64,000 nucleotides of DNA from Patescibacteria group bacterium (GTDB lineage: Bacteria; Patescibacteriota; WWE3; 2-01-FULL-39-13), in NCBI GenBank assembly GCA_048499955.1, contig JASNYX010000001.1, positions 2,452 through 66,451 of the forward strand, given 5' to 3'. Numbering within the stretch: position 1 is the stretch's first letter; every line of letters begins with the position of its first letter. The notes beneath the pieces were generated by a model that was not told where the DNA came from, ran no database searches, and saw only the letters and a program-made list of their open reading frames with translations. The position numbers and the translations under genes are program-made. Positions 5,014 through 57,536 of this stretch are shown piece by piece.

Positions 5014-5019
5014 AATTAG

Positions 5020-5715: not shown

Positions 5716-5724
5716 TAGCTTAAT

Positions 5725-13104: not shown

Positions 13105-13116
13105 CTGACGCATACA

Positions 13117-14834: not shown

Positions 14835-14948
14835 ATGGGGTATGGTTATGAAAAAGCCTGTAAAATAAGCACTATAATATGGGTATGTGTGAGGGAATTT
14901 AAATCTTGTTCTTATCAGGTTTATAAATTTGTTCGCATTTTTGCTAAA

Positions 14949-16310: not shown

Positions 16311-16312
16311 TT

Positions 16313-18631
16313 ATGGAAAAAACATATAATCCCGGTGATTCTGAAATCCGGATATACAATAAATGGCAGAGCTCTAATCTTTTTTCTCCCGAAGGCTTAG
16401 AAGCCATTCGTGAAAAATACGGCTTACATGCAAATGGCCAAACTTATTCTATTTTGATGCCACCTCCAAATGCGAATGCTGCTTTACACTGCGGCCATGC
16501 TACATATTCTTTGCAGGATCTAATGATCAGGTTTAAACGTATGCAAGGTTATGATGTTCTATATTTGCCTGGTACCGATCATGCAGGATTTGAAACCCAG
16601 GTCGTTTATGAACGTAAACTTAAATCAGAAGGAAAAAGTCGCTTTGATTTTGATAGAGAAACTTTCTTTAACGATGTTTTAAATTTTGTTAAGGATAATT
16701 CAACTTTGGCAATCGACCAATTAAAAAAATTAGGGATGAGTGCCGACTGGTCAAGAAACACATTTACTCTTGATCCTTATGTTGTTGATTTCGTATATGA
16801 CACATTTATAAAAATGTATAAAGACGGAATGGTGTACCGGGATGGCTATATGGTTAATTATTCAACCCATTATGGCACCACTTTCAGCGACTTAGAGGTA
16901 GATTATAAAGACACGATTTCTCCTCTTTATTATGTAAAGTATCTAATAAAAGAGATTCCCGATAAATACATTACTGTGGCTACAGTACGGCCCGAAACCA
17001 TATATGCGGATGTTGCAGTTGCTGTTAACCCTGCAGACAAAAGGTATAAACATCTCGTCGGGAAGACAGCTATTAACCCTTTAAACGGAAGAAACATCCC
17101 TATCATTGAAGATGAATACGTTGAAGTTGAATTTGGTACAGGTGCCTTAAAGATAACTCCCGGTCATGATCCAAATGATTATAAAATCGGCAAAAAGTAT
17201 AACCTTGATCTTATTTCTTTAATAAATTTGGATGGAAAAATGAACGAGCATGCAATCGAATGTGCAGGGTTATATCCATCGCAAGCCAGAAAGAAAGCGG
17301 CTGAGATATTGTCGGAAATGGGTGCGTTAGAAAAAGTGGATGAAAAATATCGAAATCGTGTTCTAGTGGATTACAAAGATGGGTTTCCGATAGAGCCCAT
17401 GATTTTGCCTAACTGGTTTATAAATATTGATGAGTTAGCTGATAAGGCAATGGAAGCCATTAATTCGGACCGGGTCAGATTTAATCTTCCTGAATGGAAG
17501 AGAGATATCAGCCGGTGGATAGTCGAAAAGAAGCCTTGGCCAGTAAGTCGTCAAACTGTTTTCGGTATTAGAATTCCGGTTTGGTACAGTGTTGAGCTCA
17601 ACCCCACCTTACAGATTACCTTCATTAACTCTAAAAAAGAAAATATTACGGGTAGTATTAAAAACCTCTTAGCTGAATACCCATTAAGTGAAATAAAAGA
17701 AGGGTTGCAGAAAGTATTTGCTACCGAAAATTCTATTTTTGAAGTTTCTAAGCTTGCTCCTGATGAAAACTTTCTTCCCGAGACTGATACTTTTGATACA
17801 TGGTTTAGTTCCGGCCAGTGGCCCTTTGTTACATTAATTGAAAAGAACTTGAAGAGCGCCTCTGCCGAAGGCTCAGATAGCTTAAACGAGAAATTAAAAG
17901 CGTCAAGTGATTTAAAAAAATATTTCCCTACTGATTTATTGGATTCGGGTTATGACATTATGTTTTTCTGGATTGCCAGAATGATTATGTTCAGTTTGTA
18001 TCTGACTGATGAAGTTCCATTTAAAATGGTTTACTTTCACGGAATGGTCACCGATAAAAAGGGTCAGAAAATGAGCAAAAGTAAGGGAAATGTTGTTAAC
18101 CCTCTCGAAATGGCTGAAAAATACGGGGCAGATTCCTTAAGGATGGGAATCATAGTGGGCGGGAATACCGAAGCCAGAGTGTCCCCTTTTGATGAAGAAA
18201 AAGTTCGTGGCTATCGGAATTTTGCCAATAAAATTTGGAACATGGGTAGATATTTAAATATGAAGATAGATGAGTCCAAGAACGTGCCGGTTTATTCCCC
18301 TGGGATTTCGACTAATTCCGATGACTTGGAAATAATTTCCAAGTTTAACAGTTTGGTTTCATACGTTACCGATCGTATTGAGAAACTTCAATTTAAGCAT
18401 TCAGGTGAGGCGGTTTATCACTTTATTTGGGATGACTTGGCTAACAATTATCTGGAGAAAATTAAAGATCGGAATGATTCTGAAGCTTTAAGTGTGTTTA
18501 GATATGTTTTTAGTGGATGTCTTAAGCTTTTGCATCCGTTTATGCCTTTCGTGACTGAAGCTGTCTGGGAAGAGGTTTCAGAAACGCCGGAAGTTCCCTT
18601 AATAGTTTCGGGCTGGCCTGAATCTGAGTAA
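16313..18631 (+). CDS. valS: Valyl-tRNA synthetase (compact 772-aa form)
   Basis: Class I motifs PPPNANAALHCGHA (HIGH-type), GTDHAGFETQ, DTWFSSGQWPF, KMSKSKGN; the pattern matches ValRS rather than IleRS/LeuRS. Confidence 0.8.
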   Translation: MEKTYNPGDSEIRIYNKWQSSNLFSPEGLEAIREKYGLHANGQTYSILMPPPNANAALHCGHATYSLQDLMIRFKRMQGYDVLYLPGTDHAGFETQVVYERKLKSEGKSRFDFDRETFFNDVLNFVKDNSTLAIDQLKKLGMSADWSRNTFTLDPYVVDFVYDTFIKMYKDGMVYRDGYMVNYSTHYGTTFSDLEVDYKDTISPLYYVKYLIKEIPDKYITVATVRPETIYADVAVAVNPADKRYKHLVGKTAINPLNGRNIPIIEDEYVEVEFGTGALKITPGHDPNDYKIGKKYNLDLISLINLDGKMNEHAIECAGLYPSQARKKAAEILSEMGALEKVDEKYRNRVLVDYKDGFPIEPMILPNWFINIDELADKAMEAINSDRVRFNLPEWKRDISRWIVEKKPWPVSRQTVFGIRIPVWYSVELNPTLQITFINSKKENITGSIKNLLAEYPLSEIKEGLQKVFATENSIFEVSKLAPDENFLPETDTFDTWFSSGQWPFVTLIEKNLKSASAEGSDSLNEKLKASSDLKKYFPTDLLDSGYDIMFFWIARMIMFSLYLTDEVPFKMVYFHGMVTDKKGQKMSKSKGNVVNPLEMAEKYGADSLRMGIIVGGNTEARVSPFDEEKVRGYRNFANKIWNMGRYLNMKIDESKNVPVYSPGISTNSDDLEIISKFNSLVSYVTDRIEKLQFKHSGEAVYHFIWDDLANNYLEKIKDRNDSEALSVFRYVFSGCLKLLHPFMPFVTEAVWEEVSETPEVPLIVSGWPESE

Positions 18632-40801: not shown

Positions 40802-41344
40802 ATGCCGGGAAAAAACCTTAAACGACAGCTATTACCAAATGGAATTTACCATGCTTATAATCGAGGCTTCGAAAAGCGAGAAGTATTCAAGGATGGTGCG
40901 GATTATTTAAACTATACTGAGCTAGTTAGACAGGAAATCATAAAAAATCCGGGAAAAGTCATCATATACGCATATTGTTTGTTGCCGAATCATTTTCATT
41001 TCTTAATAAAGCAGAGTAGTAAATATGATATGCCAAGGTTTATGCAGGTTGTGACCGCCGAATATACCCGCTATTTCAATCACAGATACAAACGTTATGG
41101 CAGATTATGGGAAAATGCATACCGTGCGGTACTGATTAAAGATCACTATCAATTTGTTACGGTGCAAAACTACATTCATCGAAATCCATCAGATATCACT
41201 GAAAATATAGAAAAATATCCGTATTCAAGTTACGGACACTATAAACATAGATTTAAACTGGATTTCATTAAAAAGGGGAGACCCCTAAGACCTCTATCGC
41301 CATCTACCGAGCCCCTATCATTTCCGAACCTCGATATTGAATAA
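40802..41344 (+). mobile_element. tnpA: IS200/IS605-family HuH (Y1) transposase TnpA, possibly RAYT-like (180 aa)
   Basis: YHAYNRG start, HuH motif LLPNHFHFLI, catalytic Tyr context VQNYIHRNP; 3' end overlaps the convergent SpoIID-like gene by 27 nt. Confidence 0.7.
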
Positions 41345-44417: not shown

Positions 44418-45497
44418 ATGAATAAAATTGCTTCACTTTTTATTATCAGTTTTATTTTCTTTGTAGCAATTGGGTTTCTCTTCAGAAATACTTGGAAAAA
44501 CAGCTTCCTTACAACTAACAATCAACCTCAGGCAATCTATTTTATACGAGATGGCGATCTGTGGTATTTGAATAAAGATACCTCTAATATTAATCAGATT
44601 ACTGATTTGGGTGGCATAGAAGAGTATTGGGTCTTTGAATCCGGAGCCGTCGTAATAAAACGTATTAACTATGAGTCTCATCGCCTAGTAGCGGAGCTTC
44701 TTTATTCTCAAGACAGTTTAAAAACATTTGAAGTAGTTGTTAATAAAACCTTTGAATTCAGTAATCGACCTGATGACATTTACCCCCATTTTGAATTTAA
44801 AGTTTCTGTTGCACCGGATGGGAATAGTTTAGTATATGGTGGTGATTTCTCAGATAGCCTTCAACTTTATGATTTACAAAAAAAATCCACGATTGATTTA
44901 CAACACAAATCGATCTTCGAGTTTGCCTTATCTCGCGATGGAAAGCGTTTAGCTTTTATCAAAGATGCAAACATTGAAGTCCTCGATTTGCCTACGGGTG
45001 ATCAACTTGCGAAAACCGAATTCATTCGCGGGAATGTTTCATACGAAAGTTTTATGAATCCTCAAAAATTAGTCGGATGGACAGCAGATGGGTTATCAGT
45101 CATTTACTTGCATGGTAATTATGGCCAAGGTATGCCTGTAAGTAAGTCAGTTCAGCATTTATATGCGTTTGATATTCCAAACAACCTAGTGCATAAGTTA
45201 AGTAAATCGGAAGAGGGACTGATCGATAACCCCACAAGTGATCTATCTATGGGCGGTTATCTCTACTATGTAACTAGTAAGGCTAATTTTCAGAAAAGTG
45301 CTTGGAGATTGAACTTGGATAATTACGAAATCGTAGAGGTTCCGGACCTAATTAATATGCAAGTTGTATTGAACTCGGGGCAAGGTCTAATTTTTTCGAA
45401 GAGAGGATTTGAAAATAATAGCCATGAAATTTGGAAGTCTGATCTGTTAGGTAAGAATGCCCAGATATTGATTGAGAACGGTACAATTTCGAAGTGA
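44418..45497 (+). CDS. Membrane-anchored beta-propeller-like (TolB/PD40-like) hypothetical protein
   Basis: N-terminal TM (ASLFIISFIFFVAIGFLF) then WD-like repeats; same architecture as the 2007-3326 protein; its 3' end is duplicated (degenerately) 5 kb downstream. Confidence 0.65.
   Translation: MNKIASLFIISFIFFVAIGFLFRNTWKNSFLTTNNQPQAIYFIRDGDLWYLNKDTSNINQITDLGGIEEYWVFESGAVVIKRINYESHRLVAELLYSQDSLKTFEVVVNKTFEFSNRPDDIYPHFEFKVSVAPDGNSLVYGGDFSDSLQLYDLQKKSTIDLQHKSIFEFALSRDGKRLAFIKDANIEVLDLPTGDQLAKTEFIRGNVSYESFMNPQKLVGWTADGLSVIYLHGNYGQGMPVSKSVQHLYAFDIPNNLVHKLSKSEEGLIDNPTSDLSMGGYLYYVTSKANFQKSAWRLNLDNYEIVEVPDLINMQVVLNSGQGLIFSKRGFENNSHEIWKSDLLGKNAQILIENGTISK
45385..45460. repeat. Left copy of an imperfect direct repeat (att-like) inside the 3' end of the 44418-45497 gene
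   Basis: gtctaattttttcgaa ... tggaagtctgatctgttaggtaagaatgc matches 50415-50490 (16/16 and 28/29 nt, same 47-nt spacing); weaker colinear similarity extends about 60 nt upstream. Confidence 0.55.
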
Positions 45498-45507: not shown

Positions 45508-46764
45508 TTATCGTCTTTGTAATAAGCTTTTTATTGAAGATAAGTCAAAACCTTTTTTCCCGGATTCGAGTTTCTGAATTTTTTGTAGTAACGTTCTTGC
45601 ATTAGGACTCCCATGCTCGCTATTTGCCCATGCTGTCGAAACTTCCTTTAGTCGCCCCTGTATCGCTTCCATTAGGTCTTCTTCTTTGAAAGATCTGCTA
45701 AAAGCGAATTTTTGAGCTTCTTCTGCTAAATATTGTCTTCTGACTTCAGGATCATCGCTATATAGATTCCGAAGGTAGTTTCCTATCGTGTAATCTTGGT
45801 CGCCATCTTGCTGTGTTCCATCCCCCATTTCGCTTATACCTTCAGATAATAAATGTAAAACCATTAAATTTACCCTGAATGGTTTGCCGTCTTTTCCGAT
45901 TACCGTAAAATCGGGGTTTTTAAAGATTCTGCCGAAATGAAACCCGCTGTTCAGAAATGGAGAGGGAATCCCATTTAGTTTTGTTACTCTTGAGTCTACA
46001 TGTCTAGCTTGACAACCTCTAGCGCTGAGTCTGTACCAATTGCTGGGATCGCTTTCAGTCCAGTTCATAATATCTGCAAGATGGTTTGCAATGAACTCCT
46101 GCTCATCGCCATATATGTTTACCGGATTTGTAAAGTTGATTTTTTTGTATTCTGCCCATAGTTGTTTATAAACAGCATTTATTTGAACTAATCGTGGATT
46201 CTTTTCCCGACTACTTGATCCATAGAGATTCTCGAGGGGATAGTCAAGGTTAGCCGCACACGCTCTAAGAAAATTAACCTTATGTTCGATATGCATAGGA
46301 AGAGCATAGTTGGAAGAAATGAGCATGCTTAATACGTCTTTCCTAAACTCGTCTGATTCTATTCTTTCATCTCCATACATTTCGGGATTCGCTCGCTGGA
46401 ATTCTTTAATCATATCGAGTTCCTCCTGTGTTAGGAATTTTCTTTGTCCATAATTTACGCCGTTAATGGTTACATTTAAGAGTGGTTTTTCAACACTAGG
46501 AAACGGGTAGTTGTTAAATACAAACCCGGCATTAAGTAGTTGCTCTCTTGTCAAATTGCCTATAGAAATGTCTTCTGCTGAAACTCCGGTTTCCAGTAAT
46601 GTAACGAATTCAGGATCATCTTTGGTGATTTTTCCTGAAGGTATTACTTCTAGAGGGTCGTGAGGTGGTTGGCTTTCTTGTATGACAAGCATTTCATAAA
46701 TACTATCTAGTGGGTTTTCGTTTAAATCCTCTTCTTCTAAGGTTTGGGGCAGATGGGTTGCCAT
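45508..46764 (-). CDS. Hypothetical protein (418 aa), first gene inside the putative inserted segment
   Basis: Long intact ORF, no recognisable catalytic motif (no tyrosine or serine recombinase signatures). Confidence 0.6.
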   Translation of the reverse strand: MATHLPQTLEEEDLNENPLDSIYEMLVIQESQPPHDPLEVIPSGKITKDDPEFVTLLETGVSAEDISIGNLTREQLLNAGFVFNNYPFPSVEKPLLNVTINGVNYGQRKFLTQEELDMIKEFQRANPEMYGDERIESDEFRKDVLSMLISSNYALPMHIEHKVNFLRACAANLDYPLENLYGSSSREKNPRLVQINAVYKQLWAEYKKINFTNPVNIYGDEQEFIANHLADIMNWTESDPSNWYRLSARGCQARHVDSRVTKLNGIPSPFLNSGFHFGRIFKNPDFTVIGKDGKPFRVNLMVLHLLSEGISEMGDGTQQDGDQDYTIGNYLRNLYSDDPEVRRQYLAEEAQKFAFSRSFKEEDLMEAIQGRLKEVSTAWANSEHGSPNARTLLQKIQKLESGKKGFDLSSIKSLLQRR

Positions 46765-47019: not shown

Positions 47020-48393
47020 ATGACAAGCAACGAAATTAAACAGAGACTCAAAGAATATTTTTCCTCATGCTCTGATATGAATTTAGTGAGCGTTTGTTTG
47101 ACAGGCTCGTCTTTAACTAAGCCCCTCTCTGAAGTGGGTGATATAGACTTGGCGTTTATCCTAAAAATAATAGACCATGAAAGTTTGGTACAACTTAGTG
47201 AATACATTTCAGATTTAGAAAAGATTTTTAACAAAAAAATTGGATTTAGTGTACTTTCTGAGGATGAAATTACAAGGGCTAGAGATACCGGCTACTTCCT
47301 TATTGAGGGAAGAAGTGCGAACTATGCAGACGATTTTAAGAATTGTGAAAGCGTTTATGGAGCTTCACTAGGCATAGAAAATATTGAGTTCAATAGTGAC
47401 CCAATAAGTTCCTACTCGAGTTTGAATCGGGTTTTTCATAATCTTGTAAAAGCCATTGTTGTAAAGAATCATGATATAAAAACAATCGAGAAACTAATAA
47501 CAAAGGCTATAAAAATAGTAAATTATAAAACTTTTCAAGATGAGTCAGATTTAAAAAAGCATAGGATAACTAATCAGGATTTTACCAGTGTGAAAGATAT
47601 TTTTTCTAATAAGAAGCAAGGGCAACAATTAGATTCAAAGGAAATTTCCTCTATTTTAAATTTCGTGAACAACCTGAGGACCTATTTGGCAGAAGATATT
47701 ACTAAGCAAAGCATATTTTCCTATGGTATACGTCCTAATAACCTGCCTCCTGAAACAAAATTTATTTTTATTTCGGGTGTAAATCTTTCGGGAAAGTCGA
47801 CTGTTTCACGCAAACTTGCCGGAATCTTAAATTACAATCTTATTCACCTTGACAGCATAAAAGATTCATACAAATCCGTGTACGATTTCCTTGAAATGAA
47901 CACCGTTGATGCTCATCAGGTTATGCCGCACCTTGAGGATTTGAACTTATCCCATGACCGGAAATTGATTCTTAGCTACCAACAAATCAGCAATATTCTT
48001 ATGTACCACCTGAGGTTAATGCTTAAGCCTCTGGCTGTTAAAGGGAAAAGTTGCATTATCGAAGGTTTACATCTTGATCCAGTCGGGCTTAAGTATTTTA
48101 CTGATTATTTCGAAAGCCAAGGAGTGGAAGTTCAAAAATATTATTTATCTACGGATATTCATGATGCATATCAAAATCTTGAACAACTGAAAAAAGAAAA
48201 TGCACCACATAGAGATTTTAAGAAATTCGAATATAAAATTTCCAAGGACAATCCTAATAATGTTTGGCTCATCGATAAACATTTTAAGGAAAGTGCCGAT
48301 AAATATGGCTGGCAGATAATTAAAAACCCACACGGATATTTAGATCAAACTATTTTCGACATTTATTCAAAGATAATATCTTTCCCCCGATGA
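47020..48393 (+). CDS. Fusion protein: N-terminal Pol-beta-superfamily nucleotidyltransferase (NTase) plus C-terminal P-loop (CoaE/PNK-like) kinase domain
   Basis: NTase motif GSSLTKPLSEVGDIDL (GS-x10-DhD); Walker A FISGVNLSGKSTVSRKLA, then IIEGLHLD. Confidence 0.7.
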   Translation: MTSNEIKQRLKEYFSSCSDMNLVSVCLTGSSLTKPLSEVGDIDLAFILKIIDHESLVQLSEYISDLEKIFNKKIGFSVLSEDEITRARDTGYFLIEGRSANYADDFKNCESVYGASLGIENIEFNSDPISSYSSLNRVFHNLVKAIVVKNHDIKTIEKLITKAIKIVNYKTFQDESDLKKHRITNQDFTSVKDIFSNKKQGQQLDSKEISSILNFVNNLRTYLAEDITKQSIFSYGIRPNNLPPETKFIFISGVNLSGKSTVSRKLAGILNYNLIHLDSIKDSYKSVYDFLEMNTVDAHQVMPHLEDLNLSHDRKLILSYQQISNILMYHLRLMLKPLAVKGKSCIIEGLHLDPVGLKYFTDYFESQGVEVQKYYLSTDIHDAYQNLEQLKKENAPHRDFKKFEYKISKDNPNNVWLIDKHFKESADKYGWQIIKNPHGYLDQTIFDIYSKIISFPR

Positions 48394-49433
48394 TGAAATT
48401 AGAATCAATAGATCTGGGCAACTACAACTCTGAATTAATAGAACCACCGATTCCTATTAATCCCCTTAATCGCCATGAAACATATGTTTATAAATTAATT
48501 ACCACGAACGGTGTCTTTGCGTTATATGTTTCAAATCGATTACCAAAATTTCCCCATACTCAGGAGTATTTATCAGAAATAATAGAATCCAATTTCCCGA
48601 AAATAAAAACACCAACTTATATAAAGTCATTTAATGGAGATTTTTATATAGAAAAGATAGTGGATCAACAAACATATTATTTAAGTGTCAAAAAGTGGAT
48701 CGATGGAAATCCCTACACAAATAAGCTCAGCGAGTTGAAAAATTCGGCACAAGCTCTTGCTTCCATACATGGTGTCTCTGCAGATTATAGAATCGACAAA
48801 GATCTTTCATTAAAAAATAAAAGCGGATTAAATAAATCATTTTCACTTGGATCTGATATGCTCTTTATCGAGTATCTGGACCTTTTTTTATCAAAACATC
48901 GTAAATCTAATCGTGTATGTAGCTGGATAGAAAAAAATAAGAAAACTTTAATAAAAGAGTGGCAAGAGTGCATAAGTTTTTACAACGCAGACATATATTC
49001 GAAGCTCCCACGAGGTATACTTCATGGCGATTTTACTCCGCAAAATATTTTATTTGAAAATGATTTTGTTGTAGGAGTTCTTGATTTCAACTCCATCAAA
49101 TACGATGCGTACTTACGGGAAATCGTTTGGTCTGCTTTGACATTCTCGCAAAGTAAAAGTTCCTCGAGCACGTTGAGTTTTGAGAGATTCGCAACCTTTA
49201 TTAAGGAGTATGTTCGTATGGCAGAGAATTCGGATTCTTACTCCGATGATTATCTTGATTATTGTTATGAGGTTTCTATTTCCAGATGTTTGAAAGTTTT
49301 TAAGAATTTGATAAAGAAGGACGTAACCGACTCATGGTACTTGTCGGAATATCTTGAAGGAAATATGAGAAATATTGATTTTCTACTTACAGAACGAAGC
49401 CGGATTTCCTGTCGGAAGAATTATTCCAGATAA
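48390..49433 (+). CDS. Aminoglycoside phosphotransferase (APH)/choline-kinase-fold phosphotransferase
   Basis: Brenner motif ILHGDFTPQNILF and VVGVLDFNS (DxD metal-binding); 4-nt overlap with the upstream fusion gene (operon). Confidence 0.7.
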   Translation: MMKLESIDLGNYNSELIEPPIPINPLNRHETYVYKLITTNGVFALYVSNRLPKFPHTQEYLSEIIESNFPKIKTPTYIKSFNGDFYIEKIVDQQTYYLSVKKWIDGNPYTNKLSELKNSAQALASIHGVSADYRIDKDLSLKNKSGLNKSFSLGSDMLFIEYLDLFLSKHRKSNRVCSWIEKNKKTLIKEWQECISFYNADIYSKLPRGILHGDFTPQNILFENDFVVGVLDFNSIKYDAYLREIVWSALTFSQSKSSSSTLSFERFATFIKEYVRMAENSDSYSDDYLDYCYEVSISRCLKVFKNLIKKDVTDSWYLSEYLEGNMRNIDFLLTERSRISCRKNYSR

Positions 49434-49447
49434 GTAATATTGGTAAA

Positions 49448-49699
49448 GTGAAAATTATTGAAGTGGGGGATGACTCTTTAACAATAGATGTTATTGAGGA
49501 TCAGAGCTTTGATGGGGAATTTTATCCGAGAATCCCTGTCGATAGATTATTAATTAAAGATGAAATTTGCACTTCAGGGTTCCCGCTTGCAATGGATGTT
49601 GAGTATGATTATTGTTTTAACATTGAGAATCAGGGTGATATTATCGCTTTAAAATATATAATCCAAGGAAGAAGTACTTTTCCTAACCCTAATCGGTAA
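49448..49699 (+). CDS. Small hypothetical protein (83 aa), third gene of the NTase-kinase operon
   Basis: Starts 14 nt after the upstream stop; acidic; no motif. Confidence 0.4.
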   Translation: MKIIEVGDDSLTIDVIEDQSFDGEFYPRIPVDRLLIKDEICTSGFPLAMDVEYDYCFNIENQGDIIALKYIIQGRSTFPNPNR

Positions 49700-49959
49700 C
49701 TTTTTATTGAAGAAGATTATGATTTTAACAAAAAAAGACCTGTGAAGGGCTTTTATGGTGGGGAGTCTAGACGACCATTGGAATCAAATAGCTGAGTTCA
49801 GTTATGGGCCAGAGGATGTTTGTGAAATAGAAAAAATGTCCAATAGTGATCTGCTTTGTATATGAAGAGTCGATTTGACTCTAATACTTAGCTTTTCACT
49901 AGCAAGGACTTGGTTTTACCCAAGTGTTGGACAGACGTCCTTGCCTTTGTCGATACTAA

Positions 49960-50170
49960 CTACAGATCTTCGATCCAGGTGAAGTCGAATGAATAGCCCT
50001 CTGGGGGTGAGCCCGCAGCTTTCTTCAGCGGCTTTTCTGGGTCATTGACCCAGAAGGGAACCTGGTAGGTTCCTTTGTCAATTTCATGAACGATGGGGTA
50101 TTGCCCATCACTTTCTCGAGGCCCGTACTTCCGAAAGAAGACCTTGTAGGTACTATTTTTATTAGCCATG
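49960..50170 (-). CDS. Small hypothetical protein (70 aa) with a strong Shine-Dalgarno sequence
   Basis: aaggag 6 nt upstream of the ATG at 50170 (MANKNSTYKVFF...). The track ORF extends to 50217, but the SD supports the internal start. Confidence 0.5.
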
Positions 50171-50350
50171 TTTTCTCCTTTTTGGCTAATTACAGCATGA
50201 AAAATCGACCCGCTCATTTTATCCTATAGTAGTTAGTTTTTCAATTGGGAAATAGGTTCAATGTTTTAGAGTGTTTAGCGGTAATGCCTGAACTGATACC
50301 ACATACGTAGGTCAAATTTACAGAAAAGTACTTGGAAACTAAGTTAAGAA

Positions 50351-50503
50351 AATTTCGAAATGGAAGAAGTATCAGGATTGGCTAATGTTAAGTATGTTTC
50401 TAGTGACGATAATAGTCTAATTTTTTCGAAAACCGATGCTTTAAACCAACCCACTTAGATATGGAAGTCTGATCTGTTAGGTAGAAATGCTGAAATTGTT
50501 TAG
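50351..50503 (+). pseudogene. Decayed duplicate of the 3' end of the TolB-like gene (right att-like repeat); no intact reading frame
   Basis: Colinear similarity to 45321-45460 with two near-identical blocks (50415-50430, 50462-50490); lies in a 525-nt gene-free stretch. Confidence 0.5.
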
Positions 50504-50742
50504 ATAATGTCGAATGCTATCAATGGAGATGAACGATACTTGAATTTTGTATGAACTCGATTATTTTTGAGTATTGAAGCCTAAATGTGTGTTAGATATA
50601 CTGTTGCTTGTCAAACTTGCAAAGGTAGATAGGTATTACCACCTAAATTTTTCTTGTTTAATGAATATTTAGTTCCCTCCCAAAGCTCTAAATCCTCTCC
50701 TTAATTATATTTGAGTGAAGAAGATTATTCGCTTAACCGCTA

Positions 50743-51810
50743 ATGGATAGACAGACTCCGCTTGTGCAATTGTTAAAGTCAACCAGCACTATAATTCCCT
50801 CATCAAATAACGCTAATCTTGATACTTTTATGTTCGAAACCCCTCTATTGGCAGAGCTGACTAAAAAGATAACAGAACTATATAAAGATGATCTTGTTTT
50901 CGCATTATTATTTGGGTCTAGAGTAGATGGTGAGTTTAAACAAAACAGTGATTACGATATTTTGATTGTTGAGAAGTCTCCCTATAAAGATCAATCTAGA
51001 CACGAACAAATAAAGAGGATTTTTATAGAGTTACAGGAAAAGGAAGAGTTGAAGGTTGATTATGATTATCCCGGGGAATACATAGATATTTTTACATTGA
51101 ATAAAGCTATTTTAGGTTACGGTTTTGTTTATGACGATAAAGAAGTCATCATTGAGAAAGTCGGAGCAAAAGACTGGAATAGATTTAATGAATATAGGCA
51201 ATGGTTATCTGCAATGTCAGGCCCCAACATATTATTGGCCGGAAATATAAAAGATTTTGTTGAATATAAAGAGCGGGCAATTAAAACTTTAATCAAACTA
51301 GTGATTTGTAAAAGGGACTTTACTTTTAAAGACTCGAGTGAATTAGTAGATCTGCTTGTTTTGGGTGGGAAAGAGTACTTGGGTATGAAAAATATACCGA
51401 GTGTCAGAAAATACCTCGAGGATCTTATTGAATTAGTTCTCCATGAATTAATTCAAGAAAACATAATAATAAAAGGGGATAACAAATTCCATGTTAATTT
51501 TGAAATATGTGTAAAATCTATTGAGCTATTAATATCTACAGATGAAAACGAATTTCGTAAAAGTTTTTTTGGGGGTATTACGGATTTTGATAAACAAGTA
51601 ATCACTGATGTGGTATCAGATAATCTGAGTTATGTTAGTAGTTTGAATAAGACTATCGACTACAGGTCAGATAAAGATTTACAAGAAGATATTTCTGAAG
51701 ATTTGCCAATGGACGCAACTGGACATTATAATGTTCAGAAACAATACGCTTCAATTCGGTTAGAAATACAAAATATAAATCAAACCGTCCGGGATATTGC
51801 TTTTTCCTGA
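50743..51810 (+). CDS. Nucleotidyltransferase-domain protein (MNT/KNTase-like NTase with ~200-aa C-terminal extension)
   Basis: LLFGSRVDGEFKQNSDYDILIV (GS-x9-DhD). Confidence 0.7.
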   Translation: MDRQTPLVQLLKSTSTIIPSSNNANLDTFMFETPLLAELTKKITELYKDDLVFALLFGSRVDGEFKQNSDYDILIVEKSPYKDQSRHEQIKRIFIELQEKEELKVDYDYPGEYIDIFTLNKAILGYGFVYDDKEVIIEKVGAKDWNRFNEYRQWLSAMSGPNILLAGNIKDFVEYKERAIKTLIKLVICKRDFTFKDSSELVDLLVLGGKEYLGMKNIPSVRKYLEDLIELVLHELIQENIIIKGDNKFHVNFEICVKSIELLISTDENEFRKSFFGGITDFDKQVITDVVSDNLSYVSSLNKTIDYRSDKDLQEDISEDLPMDATGHYNVQKQYASIRLEIQNINQTVRDIAFS

Positions 51811-53056
51811 TGGAAATTCTATCTCAGGATTAGTCGGAAACATCAATGAAATCTTTGCGAATCAGAATCTTATTGCTACAACAAAGAGCGCTCCAAGTGG
51901 TACTTTTGTTGAAATACAAACTATTGAATGGTTCAGGAAACTAGTTGGGTATCCTGTTATTGGGAGACCTGAGGATGCATTAGGTGCCGGCGGAGCATTT
52001 GTATTTGGAGGTACTATGGCAAACACTATCAGCTTAATGGCTGCTAGAGAAAAAGCCTTTCCCGGATGCAAGAAAAAAGGGCTAACTTCATTTAATGAAA
52101 AGCCTGTTCTATTAGTCGCTGAAAATACAATTAATCATTATTCACATGCAGGCGCTTTTGGTTGGCTAGGATTAGGTGAGGACAATATTGTTGAAGTATC
52201 GATTACAGAAGACTTTAGGCTTGATCAAAACGATCTTAAAAAGAAACTGAAAAAATATAAAAATGACTCAGGTTATAAAATAATTGCATTAGTAGCTCAA
52301 GCGGGAGATTCCAGAACAACAACTATTGAAGACTTCGACGCAATTTCAAAGATAACCAAACAATTTGGTGTATGGTTACATGTTGATGCTTGTCATGGAG
52401 GAGTTTTGATCTTTTCGAATAAACATAAACACAAATTAAAGGGAATGGAATTGGCCGATTCCATTAGTATGGATCCTCATAAAGGTTTGGCAGTTACGTA
52501 TCCCGCAAGTCTTGTACTGGTTAAAGATAGAGAAAGTTTGGGTCTTATTGCAAAACATACTGATATTACAATTAATAAAGGGAGCTTTGATCTTGGTCAA
52601 ATGACGCCAATGATTGGAAGTAAGCCATTTATTGCTTTGAAATTATGGTTTTTGATTAAATCGTTGGGAATCAAAAATATCGGTAAAATAATTGATTCAA
52701 GAATGGATCTAGCTCAGAGTTGGAAAAGGAAAATAGATGACTCGAAATATTTCAGATCGCTAAATGACATTGAATTAAATAGTGTCGTTTTTAGTTTATG
52801 CCCGAAAAAGATTAAGACTATTGATGATTCGAAAAAACTTAGTGAGTTAAATAAAGCACTTCATGACGCTGTCTATAAAGATGGTTATATGTGTATACAC
52901 AATTTTGATATTGTTGATTACAAAAATGTTTTGAAGTTTGGAAAAGTTAAAATCAGAACGTTAGGTGCAATTTTTGGGAATCCGTTAACGGATGAATATG
53001 ATTTCAATGCATATATTAATTATTTAGAATCTGTAGCAGAGAGATATATAAGATGA
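51797..53056 (+). CDS. Pyridoxal-phosphate-dependent group II amino-acid decarboxylase
   Basis: FGGTMANTISL, HVDACHGG, and the PLP-lysine motif SISMDPHKGL. Confidence 0.8.
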   Translation: MLFPDGNSISGLVGNINEIFANQNLIATTKSAPSGTFVEIQTIEWFRKLVGYPVIGRPEDALGAGGAFVFGGTMANTISLMAAREKAFPGCKKKGLTSFNEKPVLLVAENTINHYSHAGAFGWLGLGEDNIVEVSITEDFRLDQNDLKKKLKKYKNDSGYKIIALVAQAGDSRTTTIEDFDAISKITKQFGVWLHVDACHGGVLIFSNKHKHKLKGMELADSISMDPHKGLAVTYPASLVLVKDRESLGLIAKHTDITINKGSFDLGQMTPMIGSKPFIALKLWFLIKSLGIKNIGKIIDSRMDLAQSWKRKIDDSKYFRSLNDIELNSVVFSLCPKKIKTIDDSKKLSELNKALHDAVYKDGYMCIHNFDIVDYKNVLKFGKVKIRTLGAIFGNPLTDEYDFNAYINYLESVAERYIR

Positions 53057-53967
53057 TTATTATCACCCCATATCATGCCAAAAAAAATCATCATGACTTT
53101 GGTAAAAGACAAAAATATTTAACAGAAACAATTAGCTCAATTGACAAACAAAATCTTCACAGCTTAACTCATATCATTGTTGATGACGGTAGTACTGATA
53201 ACTTTTGCGACACAATTAAAACTGTTTATACCACCACAGAGAGAATTTGGCTTAGGCGTGAAAAACTAGCGGGTGAAATTCTAACTTGCACAAATGCGTT
53301 AAATTTCGGAATCAAATATATCTTAGATAATCCAGACCGATTTAAAGATAGCGAACTCGTAACATTTATTCACTCTGATGATTTAGCCATTAGCCTAGGC
53401 GATCGAGAAGATTTTATGGTTAGGAATAATCTGGATTTTATGTATTCGGATGCATTGATATTCTTTGATGATCGTGAGTATGGCTTTTTATGGGAAGGTT
53501 TACCGATTAATACAAATAACATCGAGAAAAAACTTTGGATTCAAGGGAGAATGCCATATATAACAATGACTTGGAAGCTTTCGCTAGTAAAAGACCTAAT
53601 AAAACAGAATAAGCAAAAATACGCACAGGAAGCTCTTCTTGACCCTTATGTTGGTTGTGGAGAGGATGTCGATCTTGCAATTAATACATTGAAGTTCATA
53701 GAAGATAGTGAATACAAGGGAGGGTATTTGCCTGAAATTACTGCGGCTTACAGAATTCATGGTAAATCATTAGCAGAAATACGTGATCAAAAAATCAGAA
53801 AGAATGAAGAAAATTCTGTTCTTCAAAAACATTTCGGAAGACATAGTATTAAGTTGCTTCATATTCAAAGATTTATAAATAGGCCTTGGTTGTACTTTCC
53901 TCTTTTCAGAAAGTTTAAGAAATCAATTAAATTGAAAGTTAGTGATTATTTACACAAAAATGCATAA
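53053..53967 (+). CDS. Family 2 glycosyltransferase
   Basis: SLTHIIVDDGSTDN (GT2 DDGSTD motif), DxD-like HSDD; 4-nt overlap with the decarboxylase. Confidence 0.8.
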   Translation: MIIITPYHAKKNHHDFGKRQKYLTETISSIDKQNLHSLTHIIVDDGSTDNFCDTIKTVYTTTERIWLRREKLAGEILTCTNALNFGIKYILDNPDRFKDSELVTFIHSDDLAISLGDREDFMVRNNLDFMYSDALIFFDDREYGFLWEGLPINTNNIEKKLWIQGRMPYITMTWKLSLVKDLIKQNKQKYAQEALLDPYVGCGEDVDLAINTLKFIEDSEYKGGYLPEITAAYRIHGKSLAEIRDQKIRKNEENSVLQKHFGRHSIKLLHIQRFINRPWLYFPLFRKFKKSIKLKVSDYLHKNA

Positions 53968-54946
53968 ACAATATTTACTCATAAGTTTCTTTGTTACGAA
54001 TCCCGATGCACTTGCGAAACTTAAAGCTCAGTGGTTGGGTAATGAAGAACAGAAAGACAGAAAATTTCTCGGACGTTCAGAAGAGGAAACTGCTGAAGTT
54101 ACGAACGAGCAGTTAGGTGGAAAAGTGATTTTAGTTGATCCCGAGAATTTTGAGAGAGGCATATTGCACGAAATAGATATTCCGGTTCCTATGGGATTGG
54201 TTTTCGATGAAAGAAGTAATAGTTTATTGGTTACTAGTGACTTTGATGTTTATAGCTTATCGAAAGGAAATTATAAGACGCATATATCCAATGGGTTGTT
54301 TAATAATTTGCACAGTATTTCAGTAAATAATCATGGAGATTTATTAGTTACATCTACCGGCCTTGATTCCATCTTGCAATTTGATTCGGAATCAAAAGAC
54401 TTAAAATGGAAATGGTTAGGTACTCATAATGGTTATAATAAGACTCCGGAAGGAGAAGGAGTAATGCCTATCGATGAAACATTCGATTATAGAAATAGAA
54501 CTATCGCAACTTCTGATCAAACCACTCATGTAAATAGCGCAATATTCGAAAATGATTATATTCTTGCAACTTTTTTCCATCAGGGAGAATTGGTCAAAAT
54601 AGATACAAATACCGGTAAAGTGAGCACGATTCTTGGGAACATGAAGTCTCCGCACGCTATAAGAAAAACCGATTTTGGTTATTCAGTTGTTGATACCAGA
54701 AACAACAAAGTAATGCTTTTAGATCATGAGTTCAAAATTATAAAAGAGATTTCAAATGACTATGATTGGGTGCAAGATGCGATTGAAATCGACAATCAGT
54801 TTTACATTGCTGATGCAAATAATGGAAATATCGAGAAAGTTGACTTGGATGGCATCAGTAAAGCAAAGTTCGTGTGGGATCCAAACTCTTGGAAAGTCGG
54901 TGGTTTAGCAACATTAGATGCTGATAAGATTGATTTGGTATTTTAA
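53960..54946 (+). CDS. Beta-propeller (NHL/SMP-30-like) hypothetical protein
   Basis: Repeated blade-like segments (LLVTSTGLDSILQFD; YIADANNGNIEKVD); start taken at MHKQYL (the track starts at 53942). Confidence 0.6.
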   Translation: MHKQYLLISFFVTNPDALAKLKAQWLGNEEQKDRKFLGRSEEETAEVTNEQLGGKVILVDPENFERGILHEIDIPVPMGLVFDERSNSLLVTSDFDVYSLSKGNYKTHISNGLFNNLHSISVNNHGDLLVTSTGLDSILQFDSESKDLKWKWLGTHNGYNKTPEGEGVMPIDETFDYRNRTIATSDQTTHVNSAIFENDYILATFFHQGELVKIDTNTGKVSTILGNMKSPHAIRKTDFGYSVVDTRNNKVMLLDHEFKIIKEISNDYDWVQDAIEIDNQFYIADANNGNIEKVDLDGISKAKFVWDPNSWKVGGLATLDADKIDLVF

Positions 54947-54951
54947 GTAGT

Positions 54952-56031
54952 TCAAAAATAGCTTGTCCATTTTTTGGCGATGATATCCCAACTTTCTTGC
55001 ATTGCACTTTTAATAAATACATTTCGTAATGAGTTTTTATCTTTTTGATTATAAATTTGAGGAAGGTTGTTGTTTTTTATGAAATCAATAATTGTGTATG
55101 CAAGTTTTTGCTGAGTATTTTGATCAAATGGATTTCCATCAACTTTAATACTGTAATCTTTTTCGGATAAAGCCGCCCAATTTGTTGTAAATGGTATACA
55201 CCCTGCCATTGCTGCTTGTCGAACAGTAATGCAGTCTATTTCCAACATTGTACAACCATAATATAAAATATTCGCTTTGTGGTTAGCTTCAATTAGTGTT
55301 TCTATTCCAACGCGACCATATTCAGTAATACCCGGTTGATTCATAAGGTCAATCATTTTTGCTTTCCATTTTTGTTTTTCAATATCATTGCTGTAAACAG
55401 CGTTAAATAAATCCCAACCATAATATATATCCAGCGTGATATCGGGTAGTTCCTTTTTTAAAATCGGCCATCCGTATGTAAGCATATACTCAAGGCCACG
55501 GTAATAGCTTGAAGCATAGATTAATTTTTTTGGGTCACGATTAACGTGATTTGTGCTTGCAAATTTAACATCTGCTCCATTGGGAATTATTACAAACTTT
55601 TCTTCGGGAATTAAAGGTAATAAGTTTCTTTGGAATTCAGATTTAACAAAAATTCTATCAATCTTGTCTAATCTATTTTGTGTATACTCCTCTTGCTGTG
55701 GAGTGTCGTGCAAATCAAGAATAAGTAGGGATGCAGATAAGTTCATATCTACGAAACTGGGTTCTCTCCATAGTATTAGTATGTTGTATTTATCTTGAGG
55801 ATTAAATTTCTTGTAATCATAATATGTAATACCTTCGTATATACCTTCATGTTGTCCAATATTGCTGTATACTGTTACTTCGTACCCGAGAGATTTCCAA
55901 ATTTTTGATAGGTAAATTACCGCAGTTTGAGATCCTCCAAGACCGGTTTTTAACGAATTGGGAGACCAGTATTCTGATGTTTCCCCAGTGTAGTAGACGA
56001 TGGAATTTTTCGGCCAAATTTTTTGAGTCAT
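54952..56031 (-). CDS. GT-B fold (GT4-like) glycosyltransferase
   Basis: C-terminal EYGRVGIETLIEANHKANILYYG...AAMAGCIPFTT nucleotide-sugar-binding pattern; start taken at MTQKIW (the track's 56088 start overlaps the divergent gene). Confidence 0.65.
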   Translation of the reverse strand: MTQKIWPKNSIVYYTGETSEYWSPNSLKTGLGGSQTAVIYLSKIWKSLGYEVTVYSNIGQHEGIYEGITYYDYKKFNPQDKYNILILWREPSFVDMNLSASLLILDLHDTPQQEEYTQNRLDKIDRIFVKSEFQRNLLPLIPEEKFVIIPNGADVKFASTNHVNRDPKKLIYASSYYRGLEYMLTYGWPILKKELPDITLDIYYGWDLFNAVYSNDIEKQKWKAKMIDLMNQPGITEYGRVGIETLIEANHKANILYYGCTMLEIDCITVRQAAMAGCIPFTTNWAALSEKDYSIKVDGNPFDQNTQQKLAYTIIDFIKNNNLPQIYNQKDKNSLRNVFIKSAMQESWDIIAKKWTSYF

Positions 56032-56041
56032 AGATTTTCTA

Positions 56042-56983
56042 TTGAATAAGTATAATACCTCAATGCAAATTAACAATTTAGAAAACAAGATAAAAAATTT
56101 GATATCGAAGACTCACCCCGAACTTTCATTGTCGGAAGTTATCAAAATGTCGTTAGGTATATCTACAAATGTATACAGGCTTAGTACTTCTGATGGAATT
56201 TATTATTTCCGAATTCCGAAAAACATTAATGAAAATATTTCCGGTGAAGTATTAATTTTGCAAAGATTGCAAGAGAAAGGAATGAAAGTTCCAAAAGTAA
56301 TCGGCCATGAAAACTTTTGTCACGAATTAGATGGGTATTCATACTATATAACTTCCGAAATTAAAGGTACTCCAATTGATAACACAAATAGGGATACGGT
56401 TTTACATGATGCAGGTTCTCAGCTTGCATTGTTAAATTCGATTGAATATCCGGGATTTGGTGGTATAACCAGATATCAGGAAAATATTGAATCTGTAAGT
56501 GGACATTTAAATTCATATAGTGATTTCATTCTCTATAAATGGGAAAGTCACTTAAATAAATTGCAAAATAAAGGTATCCTTTCTGACAACAAAATAGTTT
56601 CGATTACAAAATTGCTCCGTGATAATCACGATTTCTTTAATCAATTGCAGGGATACTTAATGCACGGAGATCTTAATGTTAATCACATTTATTCACACAA
56701 GGGAAATTTTTCGGGATTTATTGATTTTAGTGATTGCAGAATTGCAAATAAATTTTTTGATTTAGCCTATTTCAAGATTTGTAACCGGGAAGACTTCGCT
56801 TCATTAGTAAATGGTTATGCAAAAGTTAATCCACAGATATTAAATGAAATTAATGGTCTAGACTTTTTAATTACTACTTTAATTGTTGGTATAAGAATTG
56901 TTTCTTCGCTAATTGATAATGAACAAGATTTGGTGAAAGTTTCTCAGGTTAGAAGTCTGATTTTAGAGCTTGATTCTATATAG
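56042..56983 (+). CDS. APH/choline-kinase-fold phosphotransferase (second copy in region)
   Basis: YLMHGDLNVNHIY and GFIDFSD motifs. Confidence 0.7.
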   Translation: MNKYNTSMQINNLENKIKNLISKTHPELSLSEVIKMSLGISTNVYRLSTSDGIYYFRIPKNINENISGEVLILQRLQEKGMKVPKVIGHENFCHELDGYSYYITSEIKGTPIDNTNRDTVLHDAGSQLALLNSIEYPGFGGITRYQENIESVSGHLNSYSDFILYKWESHLNKLQNKGILSDNKIVSITKLLRDNHDFFNQLQGYLMHGDLNVNHIYSHKGNFSGFIDFSDCRIANKFFDLAYFKICNREDFASLVNGYAKVNPQILNEINGLDFLITTLIVGIRIVSSLIDNEQDLVKVSQVRSLILELDSI

Positions 56984-57025: not shown

Positions 57026-57430
57026 TGGTGGAGATGGGGGGAATCGAACCCCCATGCTAAAAGCTTAATCAAATAAAAGTTACATGCTTAACGGTTTTAA
57101 TAATTTGTATATTCTGGAAAACCGTAAAATTAATATACAAATTTGATAATTTTTCTCTGATTTGGTTGGCCTGACAAGTGATTGATCAGAGGAACTTCCT
57201 TTAAAATGCCCGAGGGCAAAAAAAAGGGAAACGCGAGGTTTCTCTTGTCAAACTGCTGAATAAGGATAAATCCGTTTGTAGTGGCTAACTTATGCTATCG
57301 CGTAAGCGGGCACCATTACATCAGCATATTCATCTGCATTGTTTGCATTTATATTTTTGACAGTTTTAAGACTTAACGGTCTGCATGTTCTATTTGAAAT
57401 GTACTTCTAGGCGATGCCTGAAACATCCCC
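57026..57430 (-). ncRNA. ssrA: tmRNA (SsrA), about 405 nt
   Basis: Minus-strand 5' GGGGAUGUUUCAGG... and 3' ...GGGGGUUCGAUUCCCCCCAUCUCCACCA (T-arm plus encoded CCA). The 7-bp acceptor stem includes the G3-U pair. Putative tag ORF GCA AAC AAU GCA GAU GAA UAU GCU... resembles E. coli ANDENYA. smpB lies immediately upstream. Confidence 0.8.
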
Positions 57431-57536
57431 AAGCGAAAAGAATTATATCAAGAATATGCCTGATTTGTCAAAGATTCGTGAGGATTGCTAATGACCTGCG
57501 TAATAAATCAGATGGGGATTAAACAACATAAAATGC

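Follow-up and report, generated by a model that had tools for sequence, protein, structure and literature searches.

What is encoded by the AT-rich group of genes at positions 50743-56983 of this 64,000-nucleotide stretch of DNA from a Patescibacteria group bacterium (WWE3 lineage; contig JASNYX010000001.1), and do these genes serve one pathway? The whole stretch is referred to here as the window, and all coordinates are given in its numbering. The segment holds a copy of an accessory, so far uncharacterised biosynthetic cassette that occurs mainly in Patescibacteria, also called the candidate phyla radiation (CPR). Its core gene encodes a nucleotidyltransferase (NTase) of the DNA polymerase beta (Pol-beta)/ANT type fused to a group II decarboxylase dependent on pyridoxal phosphate (PLP), and genes for glycosyltransferases (GTs), a beta-propeller protein and a kinase accompany it. 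The product is tentatively proposed, at somewhat less than an even chance, to be an amine derived from an amino acid, activated by a phosphate or nucleotidyl group and attached to a glycoconjugate, a reading based on sequence comparison. The cassette is accessory in character: it has the lowest G+C content (GC) in the window, adjoins a tmRNA gene and is represented by few 50%-identity clusters in the databases. The enzymes belong to known families; the fused architecture, its recombination with kinases and its linkage to the arginyl-tRNA synthetase (ArgRS) gene argS in relatives are, as far as we found, undescribed, and the full-text literature yielded no description of a fusion of a Pol-beta NTase with a group II decarboxylase. 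An original prediction, made without database searches, had placed six open reading frames (ORFs) in the segment and read them as a pathway for the phospho-amine decoration of a surface glycan. The six ORFs are located where it placed them, as ORF coordinates and translations confirm.

Core gene and frameshift

The core gene (50743-53056, plus strand) appears as two ORFs. ORF1 (50743-51810, plus strand, 355 aa) encodes the NTase and the start of the decarboxylase, and ORF2 (51797-53056, plus strand, 419 aa) encodes the rest of the decarboxylase. The 3' end of ORF1 reads GAT ATT GCT TTT TCC TGA, and removal of one T from the T5 homopolymer at 51801-51805 (plus strand, context GCT TTT TCC TGA), the site of the +1 frameshift, joins ORF1 and ORF2 as a 770-aa protein. 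The restored junction ..RDIAFPDGNSISG.. aligns with the sequence ..AFPD(S)GNS.. of the homologues, and the alignment crosses it unbroken (RDIAF-PD-GNS in the window, xYxAF-PDSGNS in the homologues). Three single-chain proteins found by database search (P0001-P0003, 740-761 aa) are collinear with the 770-aa protein over 95% of its length at 41-46% identity, and more than 25 additional genomic and metagenomic loci encode the fusion as a single ORF, with lengths of 735-802 aa. The match of ORF2 to the decarboxylase family PF00282 starts only at profile position 45, and a stop codon lies upstream in its own frame; in a profile search of the Protein Data Bank (PDB) the decarboxylase fold begins at fusion residue ~261-270, within ORF1. 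ORF1 thus supplies the initial ~85-90 residues of the fold, so that the frameshift cuts the decarboxylase domain, and in the window the N-terminal segment of the fold stands in another frame than the remainder of the polypeptide. The original prediction had overlooked both the fusion and the frameshift and had counted four genes in 50743-54946. There are three, since the NTase and decarboxylase ORFs form a single gene, and in the annotation the two called genes should be treated as one frameshifted gene.

The true start of the core gene is probably the ATG near 50830 (M30), as residues 1-31 of the fusion are absent from the homologues and are of low confidence in the AlphaFold2 (AF2) model. 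The extra T in 51801-51805 is either an assembly error or a genuine inactivating slippage; the sole other contig of the same population, L005 (SRR21762701), is 100% identical and begins downstream of the T-run. A programmed +1 frameshift at UUU-UCC-UGA, with re-pairing of tRNA-Phe on U3-U5, was considered and set aside as the leading reading, the homologues being uninterrupted at this site. The fusion is also disrupted in two further copies, one in locus L103 (3767-5045) and one in protein P0021, and because these breaks lie at other positions a conserved programmed shift is unlikely. Frameshifted copies thus number 3 of the roughly 35 seen, and the fusion gene may often be inactivated or may be prone to assembly errors. 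Unless the extra T was introduced in assembly, the cassette probably works poorly or not at all, its core gene being split by a one-nucleotide frameshift.

Synteny and domain shuffling in relatives

The gene order of the segment recurs in L001, an 8.6-kb contig from an unrelated sample, where the fusion is followed by a GT2-like GT, the propeller protein, a GT4-like GT on the minus strand and an APH-type kinase, at 35-54% amino acid identity (45% for the propeller and 50% for the GT-B protein). The order is beyond chance because it is conserved at this level of identity in an independent contig. Partial synteny is seen in L096 (fusion, GT2-like GT, APH-type kinase, GT4-like GT; 50% identity for the GT-B orthologue) and in L104 (fusion, GT2-like GT, APH-type kinase), and the kinase orthologues in L001, L096 and L104 are 35-38% identical to the window protein. 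The full synteny in the first contig and the partial synteny in the other two bear out the earlier idea that the cassette behaves as one functional unit. The GT-A gene is the commonest partner of the core gene and immediately follows the fusion in L001, L003, L006, L007, L009, L087, L089, L093, L096 and L104. The place given to glycosyltransferases in the original prediction is also supported, as they recur in most variants of the cassette: a GT2-like enzyme occurs in at least 11 loci, and GT9 together with GT2 in L012, L014 and L015.

The named genomes that carry the fusion belong to Saccharibacteria, Nomurabacteria and Roizmanbacteria. Related decarboxylases that stand alone occur in Amesbacteria, other Patescibacteria, a Legionellales-like contig and actinomycetes. 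When 1.84 billion representative proteins were searched exhaustively with a profile, those with the NTase at the N-terminus fell into only a few clusters at 50% identity.

Members of this decarboxylase clade carry the domains in several orders. NTase-decarboxylase is the order of the window family. Decarboxylase-NTase occurs in eight representatives (P0023, P0025, P0026, P0027, P0031, P0065, P0072 and P0098), decarboxylase-APH-NTase in two (P0030, 1170 aa; P0033, 1076 aa) and kinase-decarboxylase in five of ~1020 aa (P0035, P0042, P0048, P0054 and P0066). Versions with adjacent genes also exist: in L004 the decarboxylase is followed by an APH-NTase fusion, in L013 by a kinase-NTase fusion, and in L012, L014 and L015 by a protein whose C-terminal half resembles a kinase. 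Such repeated joining of decarboxylase, NTase and kinase, now in one order and now in another, argues strongly that they act on one metabolite, and the earlier proposal that decarboxylation, phosphorylation and nucleotidyl activation share a substrate is backed by fusions in almost every order. This recombination of the fusion with kinases makes the three enzyme activities directly testable as one pathway.

The protein that follows the decarboxylase in L012, L014 and L015, all Patescibacteria, is of ~846 aa. It is encoded downstream of a stand-alone decarboxylase in L012 (11614-14154) and L014 (10849-13374), and is split around the decarboxylase gene in L015 (8665-9789 and 11376-12692). Its N-terminal ~345 aa have no family match and contain an H-A-H-I-F motif reminiscent of HIT/GalT nucleotidyl enzymes; it may replace the Pol-beta NTase.

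Around the core gene in relatives are found S-adenosylmethionine (SAM) methyltransferases, a 3'-phosphoadenosine 5'-phosphosulfate (PAPS)-type sulfotransferase, radical-SAM/SPASM proteins, a TauD-type dioxygenase, GT9 and GT2 pairs, APH/choline-kinase-like kinases and glyoxalase-like proteins. In most Patescibacteria loci a PHP phosphoesterase gene is directly upstream of the core gene. This pattern of partners is that of a tailoring-rich biosynthetic cluster.

Nucleotidyltransferase domain

The NTase matches PF01909 (NTP_transf_2) with 33.0 bits (cutoff 21) and PF18765 with 32.1 bits (cutoff 26.9). Its motif G58-S59-x10-D70-Y-D72, together with D106/E112, is invariant among the fusions and places it in the Pol-beta superfamily (residue numbers G58 to K580 in this text refer to the fusion). 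The GS and DYD elements had been recognised in the original prediction; the spacing of nine residues given there is not correct, as the translation reads FGS-x10-DYD. The AF2 model of ORF1 has an overall pLDDT of 68, with 80-90 in the core. Foldseek matched this model to ANT(9)/AadA and Tam41 (E 5e-5 to 7e-4), then to MntA, and over the full length its nearest structural neighbours are NTases that act on small molecules or lipids. With ANT(9) and AadA, among the best of these matches, it shares the NTase plus helical two-domain architecture and the canonical G-S...D-x-D motif. In NCBIfam the NTase scored 31.4 bits for ANT(9) (cutoff 340) and 21.3 bits for ANT(3'')-II (cutoff 400), a match that covers the ~55-residue NTase core. 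With scores ~10-fold under the family cutoffs, membership in the ANT resistance clades was rejected.

No match to the NTP_transferase-type (LicC/GlmU/RmlA-like) families was obtained in Pfam and NCBIfam at E<=0.01 for either NTase of the window. Identity with a LicC-type cytidylyltransferase was rejected on fold, and the analogy drawn earlier with LicC fails in this respect, the enzyme being of the Pol-beta/MNT/ANT type.

The mitochondrial and bacterial Tam41 proteins have in common with the window protein a Pol-beta NTase followed by a helical C-terminal domain, and they gave the best TM-scores to the model (0.30-0.39), at 15-17% identity. Tam41 is a CDP-DAG synthase of Pol-beta fold that transfers CMP to a phosphate acceptor, yielding a CDP-alcohol (PMC11646218). 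It acts on a membrane lipid and keeps one of three acidic residues, the other two being lost (PMC11646218), whereas the window NTase keeps the classical set. Since Tam41 uses phosphate yet has lost acidic residues that this NTase retains, the acceptor here could, by analogy, be a hydroxyl (ANT-like) or a phosphate (Tam41-like).

A known anti-phage defence system was considered and rejected. PADLOC gave only a generic MNT-type NTase match (PDC-S09, E 7e-12) without a partner gene, and relatives in viral contigs were not found.

Decarboxylase domain

The decarboxylase matches PF00282 (Pyridoxal_deC) with 165 bits and E 2.6e-48 (cutoff 27) over profile positions 45-374 of 375. The Schiff-base lysine K580 (DPHK), D548 (H-V-D-A) and the PLP-stacking H465 (HYSH) are invariant in all aligned homologues, and the S-M-DPHK motif claimed earlier is present in the translation. 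A profile search of the PDB returned 8zpi, deposited as 'diaminobutyrate-2-oxoglutarate transaminase' (E 1e-59), glutamate decarboxylase (GAD, ~1e-50) and 2qma, a bifunctional 2,4-diaminobutyrate (DABA) transaminase/decarboxylase (E 1.6e-43). The nearest solved decarboxylases in this search use DABA, Glu, cysteine sulfinate (CSA), Asp or Lys, and the match to plant serine decarboxylase was weak (E 7e-4). The domain shares with the GAD/CSAD/GADL1/PanP/DABA-decarboxylase branch a full-length fold match (E 1e-59 to 1e-43) and the conserved DPHK, HVDA and HYSH motifs. It differs in being fused to an NTase and in scoring below every equivalog cutoff in NCBIfam: 168.6 bits for PanP (cutoff 606), 110.5 for L-2,4-diaminobutyrate decarboxylase (cutoff 900) and 85.4 for MfnA (cutoff 299). 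The original prediction had named, as part of what would speak against it, an orthologue of a housekeeping glutamate/aspartate decarboxylase in a conserved core context. The scores below the PanP, DABA decarboxylase and MfnA cutoffs and the accessory, low-GC context do not agree with such an enzyme.

Glycosyltransferases, propeller protein and kinase

The gene at 53053-53967 (plus strand, 304 aa) encodes a GT2-like enzyme that very likely has the GT-A fold. The match to PF00535 (22.5 bits) is just under the cutoff of 23.3; a profile built from six sequences matched chondroitin synthase, GalT1, heparosan synthase and SpsA in the PDB at E 6e-7 to 1.6e-6. Its DDGS, SDD and GCGEDVD motifs are invariant in six homologues, and the DDGSTD motif named in the original prediction is present in the translation.

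The next gene, 53942-54946 (plus strand, 334 aa), encodes a probable NHL-like beta-propeller protein with ~6 blades. Its family matches are limited to weak ones to NHL (E 7e-4), ASST and ScyE. The AF2 model is poor (pLDDT 46), all-beta with ~24 strands, and its top 50 Foldseek matches are all beta-propellers. The first four plus-strand ORFs overlap successively by 14, 4 and 26 nt.

The gene for a probable GT4-like glycosyltransferase is on the minus strand (54952-56088, 378 aa, likely start M20 at 56031). As described earlier, it converges on the propeller gene and diverges from the kinase gene. The protein gave a partial match to PF13439 over a stretch of 38 residues (22.1 bits, cutoff 28.5) and no PDB match by sequence search. 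Its residues 47-375 align with the Glycos_transf_1 (PF00534) region of a multidomain GT, P0014, at E 5e-21 (phmmer). The translation contains the motifs GLGGSQTAV and E283-x7-Q291, the latter where the GT4 pattern is E-x7-E.

The last gene of the cassette (56042-56983, plus strand, 313 aa) encodes an APH-fold small-molecule kinase, APH2, which matches PF01636 with 59.6 bits (cutoff 23.2) and carries the motifs HGDLNVNH..IDFSD. A second kinase of this fold, APH1 (48390-49433, plus strand, 347 aa; PF01636, 42.3 bits), lies upstream of the cassette and carries HGDFTPQN..LDFN. APH2 is only remotely similar to APH(3'), hygromycin kinase and Mph (E 1e-4 to 1e-5, with PDB matches at 6e-5 or weaker), and the NCBIfam scores were 39.7 bits for APH(3') (cutoff 205) and 23.8 bits for Mph(E)/(G) (cutoff 500). 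Neither window kinase matched the choline-kinase profile PF01633 at E<=0.01. Membership of the kinases in the APH antibiotic-resistance families was rejected on these scores, which are far under the curated cutoffs. The domain calls of the original prediction are upheld throughout: a Pol-beta/ANT-type NTase, a group II PLP decarboxylase, a GT-A enzyme, a beta-propeller, a GT-B/GT4-like enzyme and an APH-fold kinase, with weaker support for the GT-A, propeller and GT-B calls than for the other three.

These folds raise a second explanation, namely that the segment is a resistance or detoxification island in which NTases, kinases and GTs inactivate an antibiotic or a toxic amino-acid analogue and the decarboxylase destroys its amino-acid part. 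The ANT and APH folds, the presence of ANT(9)/AadA among the best structural matches, two NTase/kinase pairs inside 10 kb, the low GC, the mobile-element contexts of actinomycete relatives and glyoxalase/bleomycin-resistance-like neighbours in L100 and L101 are all compatible with it. We consider it improbable. The original prediction had named kinases firmly within the aminoglycoside-resistance APH clades as evidence that would speak against its own reading, and the APH(3') score is 39.7 bits against 205, with 31.4 bits against 340 for the NTase and ANT(9) and 24 against 500 for Mph. The fusions of decarboxylase, kinase and NTase in many orders point to consecutive steps on one metabolite, PADLOC gave no match above noise, and a plasmid- or phage-type context is absent here. 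The window NTase also differs from the ANT and APH enzymes in its fusion to a decarboxylase and in its setting, a conserved cassette with glycosyltransferases rather than an integron or transposon resistance context.

Proposed pathway

The preferred reading is that of an activated amine joined to a glycoconjugate. An APH-type kinase would phosphorylate a hydroxyl-bearing amino acid, or an amino-alcohol or amine derived from it. The NTase would then link the phosphorylated compound to a nucleotide as an NDP- or NMP-linked ester, and the fused PLP domain would alpha-decarboxylate it to a nucleotide-activated phospho-amine. In the variant shared by the window and L001, the GT-A and GT-B enzymes and the propeller protein would build or decorate a glycosyl acceptor, for which a cell-envelope glycan or a small glycoside are candidates. 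The substrate, the order of the steps and the acceptor are inferred; gene content, fusion, frameshift, synteny and the recurrent fusion of the three activities are direct observations. Of the glyco-amine pathway proposed originally, the functional unit and the enzymology on a shared substrate are retained, and the LicC-type NTase is not.

One of the nearest pathway comparisons is the activation of the Kennedy/Lic type, represented by LicA, LicC and LicD and by the route of plants and Plasmodium through serine decarboxylase, ethanolamine kinase, phosphoethanolamine methyltransferase and cytidylyltransferase. Like it, the cassette has a group II PLP decarboxylase, a kinase of the APH/choline-kinase fold and a nucleotidyltransferase, and SAM methyltransferases and glycan-building enzymes are encoded near many of its relatives. 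Several features differ. The NTase is of the Pol-beta/ANT/Tam41 type, in contrast to the NTP_transferase LicC or the HIGH-motif cytidylyltransferases CCT and ECT, and it is fused to the decarboxylase; there are no matches to LicB or LicD; the decarboxylase is nearest to DABA decarboxylase, GAD, CSAD and PanP and only distantly matches the plant serine decarboxylase; and the relatives are linked to argS. The methyltransferases of the relatives have no detected similarity to solved structures, and on this ground a role like that of phosphoethanolamine methyltransferase was rejected.

A number of observations weigh against an activated amine on a glycoconjugate. No component reaches any characterised equivalog threshold in NCBIfam, so that every substrate assignment is inferential, and the core gene carries a frameshift in this genome. 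The quality of the NTase model is moderate (pLDDT 68; TM-scores 0.2-0.39), and the classical acidic set retained by the NTase suits an ANT-type hydroxyl attack at least as well as attack by a phosphate (PMC11646218). The near-universal argS neighbour of the relatives is left unexplained by a model of glycan decoration with an amine. Finally, the relatives of the type PHP-fusion-ArgRS and the actinomycete relatives of the type decarboxylase-methyltransferase-NTase-ArgRS have no kinase and no glycosyltransferase. Because many relatives have neither, the kinase and GT steps are regarded as tailoring and not as core.

CPR bacteria have tiny genomes and little biosynthetic capacity. For this reason a conserved, horizontally mobile amine/glycoconjugate cassette likely matters for the CPR envelope or for the interaction of these cells with host bacteria.

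Linkage to argS and mobile contexts

The argS gene flanks the cassette in L001, L003, L007/L009/L087/L089, L011/L094, L088, L091/L092, L095, L096 and L013, which amounts to at least six different architectures among the Patescibacteria cassettes, plus L013. The minimal version is a tightly packed PHP-fusion-ArgRS group in L011/L094 (argS of L011 at 5660-7459). A tRNA-Arg(UCU) gene adjoins the cluster in L003 (6518-6594) and in L010 (2540-2611). The ArgRS proteins are 25-31% identical between lineages whose decarboxylase domains are ~50% identical. The window copy has no argS, PHP or methyltransferase gene within 64 kb and abuts the tmRNA gene; no remnants of the three were seen in the window, the 1-kb spacer at 49700-50742 included.

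In actinomycetes, a four-gene cassette of decarboxylase, methyltransferase, NTase and ArgRS is conserved in three genera (L016 and L119-L121). In Gandjariella thermophila (L016, argS at 13098-14861) it is located between two direct copies of a DDE-transposase insertion sequence (IS), at 4338-6349 and 15030-17041. In Saccharomonospora it is accompanied by a divergent cytidine/dCMP deaminase gene and lies among serine recombinases and a Replic_Relax gene, and in Haloechinothrix that deaminase gene again accompanies it, in surroundings that include serine-type recombinases and an IS transposase. These contexts suggest that the actinomycete cassette is cargo of mobile elements. The ArgRS of Gandjariella is 75-93% identical to the ArgRS of many actinomycetes, and the type also occurs alone in unrelated contexts; it may be either an accessory or a housekeeping copy.

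Genes for aminoacyl-tRNA synthetases (aaRS) within biosynthetic clusters mark aaRS inhibitors, and ArgRS is among the markers (bioRxiv 10.64898/2025.12.02.691738). Hydroxyarginine is subject to mistranslation, and genes for translation fidelity are found in clusters that make non-canonical amino acids (PMC13149037). Similarity to such aaRS-marked clusters lies in the consistent position of argS beside enzymes of biosynthetic type in the relatives and in the mobile-element-like regions of the actinomycetes (bioRxiv 10.64898/2025.12.02.691738). Known examples are tiarin/trifolitoxin, with a cluster-encoded ArgRS, and agrocin 84, albomycin and indolmycin, with resistant aaRS copies. The cassette differs from them in having no precursor of a ribosomally synthesised and post-translationally modified peptide, no YcaO, no non-ribosomal peptide synthetase and no siderophore machinery, and in the window also no argS.

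These precedents allow a further alternative, in which the cassette directs the synthesis of an arginine-related antimetabolite or ArgRS-directed inhibitor, for example from a hydroxylated, decarboxylated and nucleotidylated arginine analogue. The neighbouring ArgRS would then be a compatible or immune target and the PHP phosphatase would unmask the product, with the kinase, NTase, GT, methyltransferases and sulfotransferases serving in tailoring or self-protection. Taken together with these roles, the alternative is rather unlikely. The recurrent argS neighbourhood in the Patescibacteria architectures and in L013, the compact PHP-fusion-ArgRS group, the actinomycete four-gene cassettes in IS and recombinase surroundings and the tRNA-Arg(UCU) neighbours speak for it, as do a TauD-type dioxygenase upstream of the fusion in L099 and the glyoxalase/bleomycin-resistance-like genes of L100 and L101. 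It is weakened by the window copy, which has none of argS, PHP and methyltransferase, and by the Patescibacteria ArgRS proteins, which look like products of ordinary, highly divergent housekeeping genes. The solitary occurrence of the actinomycete ArgRS type elsewhere counts against it as well, and the nearest solved decarboxylases use Glu, CSA, Asp, DABA and Lys, not Arg.

A broader form of this thought is that the whole cassette family is functionally coupled to ArgRS and makes an arginine-mimicking, nucleotide-linked metabolite in Patescibacteria and on actinomycete mobile elements, the product being an ArgRS-directed inhibitor or a non-canonical arginine analogue and the adjacent ArgRS a matched or immune form. 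As a joint claim this is unlikely. If it were true, the family would represent a previously unseen kind of chemistry aimed at aaRS, without precedent among CPR bacteria, and the copy in the window would be a frameshifted, glycosylating variant no longer coupled to argS. The repeated linkage to argS is in any event a testable lead that could point to new aaRS-directed chemistry.

The same linkage would also be accounted for if the NTase-decarboxylase acted on components of translation, either in a tRNA modification with an amine produced in situ (agmatidine-like) or in AMPylation of ArgRS. The argS and tRNA-Arg(UCU) neighbours of the relatives fit this proposal, MntA is among the structural matches of the NTase, and some Pol-beta NTases modify tRNAs or proteins. 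The known tRNA-modification enzymes likewise include methyltransferases and enzymes of the GT2/GT4 type. The proposal is nonetheless highly unlikely: an RNA-binding domain was not detected, full-length structural similarity is closest to NTases for small molecules or lipids, the frequent partners (sulfotransferase, radical SAM, GT9, APH) suit the tailoring of a metabolite, and the window copy is near neither argS nor a tRNA gene, the tmRNA gene excepted.

Composition and flanking genes

No part of the window is richer in AT than the segment 50743-56983, which has a GC of 33.2%; elsewhere, segments of equal size do not fall below 35.3%. The low-GC stretch begins at ~47020 and runs to 43 nt short of the 3' end of the tmRNA gene; GC is 33.8% for 47020-56983 and 38.8% for the remaining window. 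The AT-richness reported in the original prediction is real, and the contrast with the rest of the window is milder than had been estimated by eye.

The upstream part of this stretch is a plus-strand sub-cluster (47020-49699, GC 33.6-34.5%). Its first gene (47020-48393, plus strand) encodes a 457-aa fusion that carries an NTase motif of the Pol-beta type near its N-terminus and ends in a P-loop (AAA_33-like) kinase; the matches to PF01909 and AAA_33 are weak and a Walker A motif is present. A fusion of an NTase with a P-loop kinase brings to mind donor synthesis of the PAPS synthase or COASY type. The gene for APH1 follows, and the top NCBIfam match of this protein is the alternative homoserine kinase. 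An 83-aa ORF on the plus strand ends the sub-cluster. The sub-cluster is possibly part of the same low-GC island as the cassette; homologues of its genes were found in none of the related cassette loci compared. The spacer between the sub-cluster and the cassette has a GC of 37.4% and contains a single small ORF on the minus strand (49960-50217, ~69 aa from the second Met) without a family match.

The tmRNA gene (57026-57430, minus strand) was identified with ARAGORN and Rfam (RF00023, 116 bits). Its 3' end, 43 nt from the end of the APH2 gene, forms the right edge of the low-GC segment. Integration of an island targeted at the tmRNA gene was considered and rejected, as the 3' end of the gene has no repeat of at least 11 nt beyond chance in the window, and no integrase gene was seen near the tmRNA gene or the cassette among the window ORFs.

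To the left of the low-GC stretch are a gene for a 418-aa protein without a family match (45508-46764, minus strand), immediately adjacent to it, and one for a putative second beta-propeller protein (44418-45497, plus strand) with weak matches to DPPIV_N, PD40 and Vgb_lyase. An IS200-like Y1 transposase gene (40802-41344, plus strand; PF01797, E 2e-12) lies ~6 kb upstream of the stretch. Promoter-like sites are in total no more numerous in the region than expected by chance. Among them are a near-consensus sigma-70 site (11/12) at 51703-51732 (plus strand), ~65 nt upstream of the TTG of the decarboxylase ORF, and a perfect 12/12 sigma-70-type promoter (TTGACA-18-TATAAT, extended TG) at 57442-57471 (minus strand), directly upstream of the tmRNA gene.

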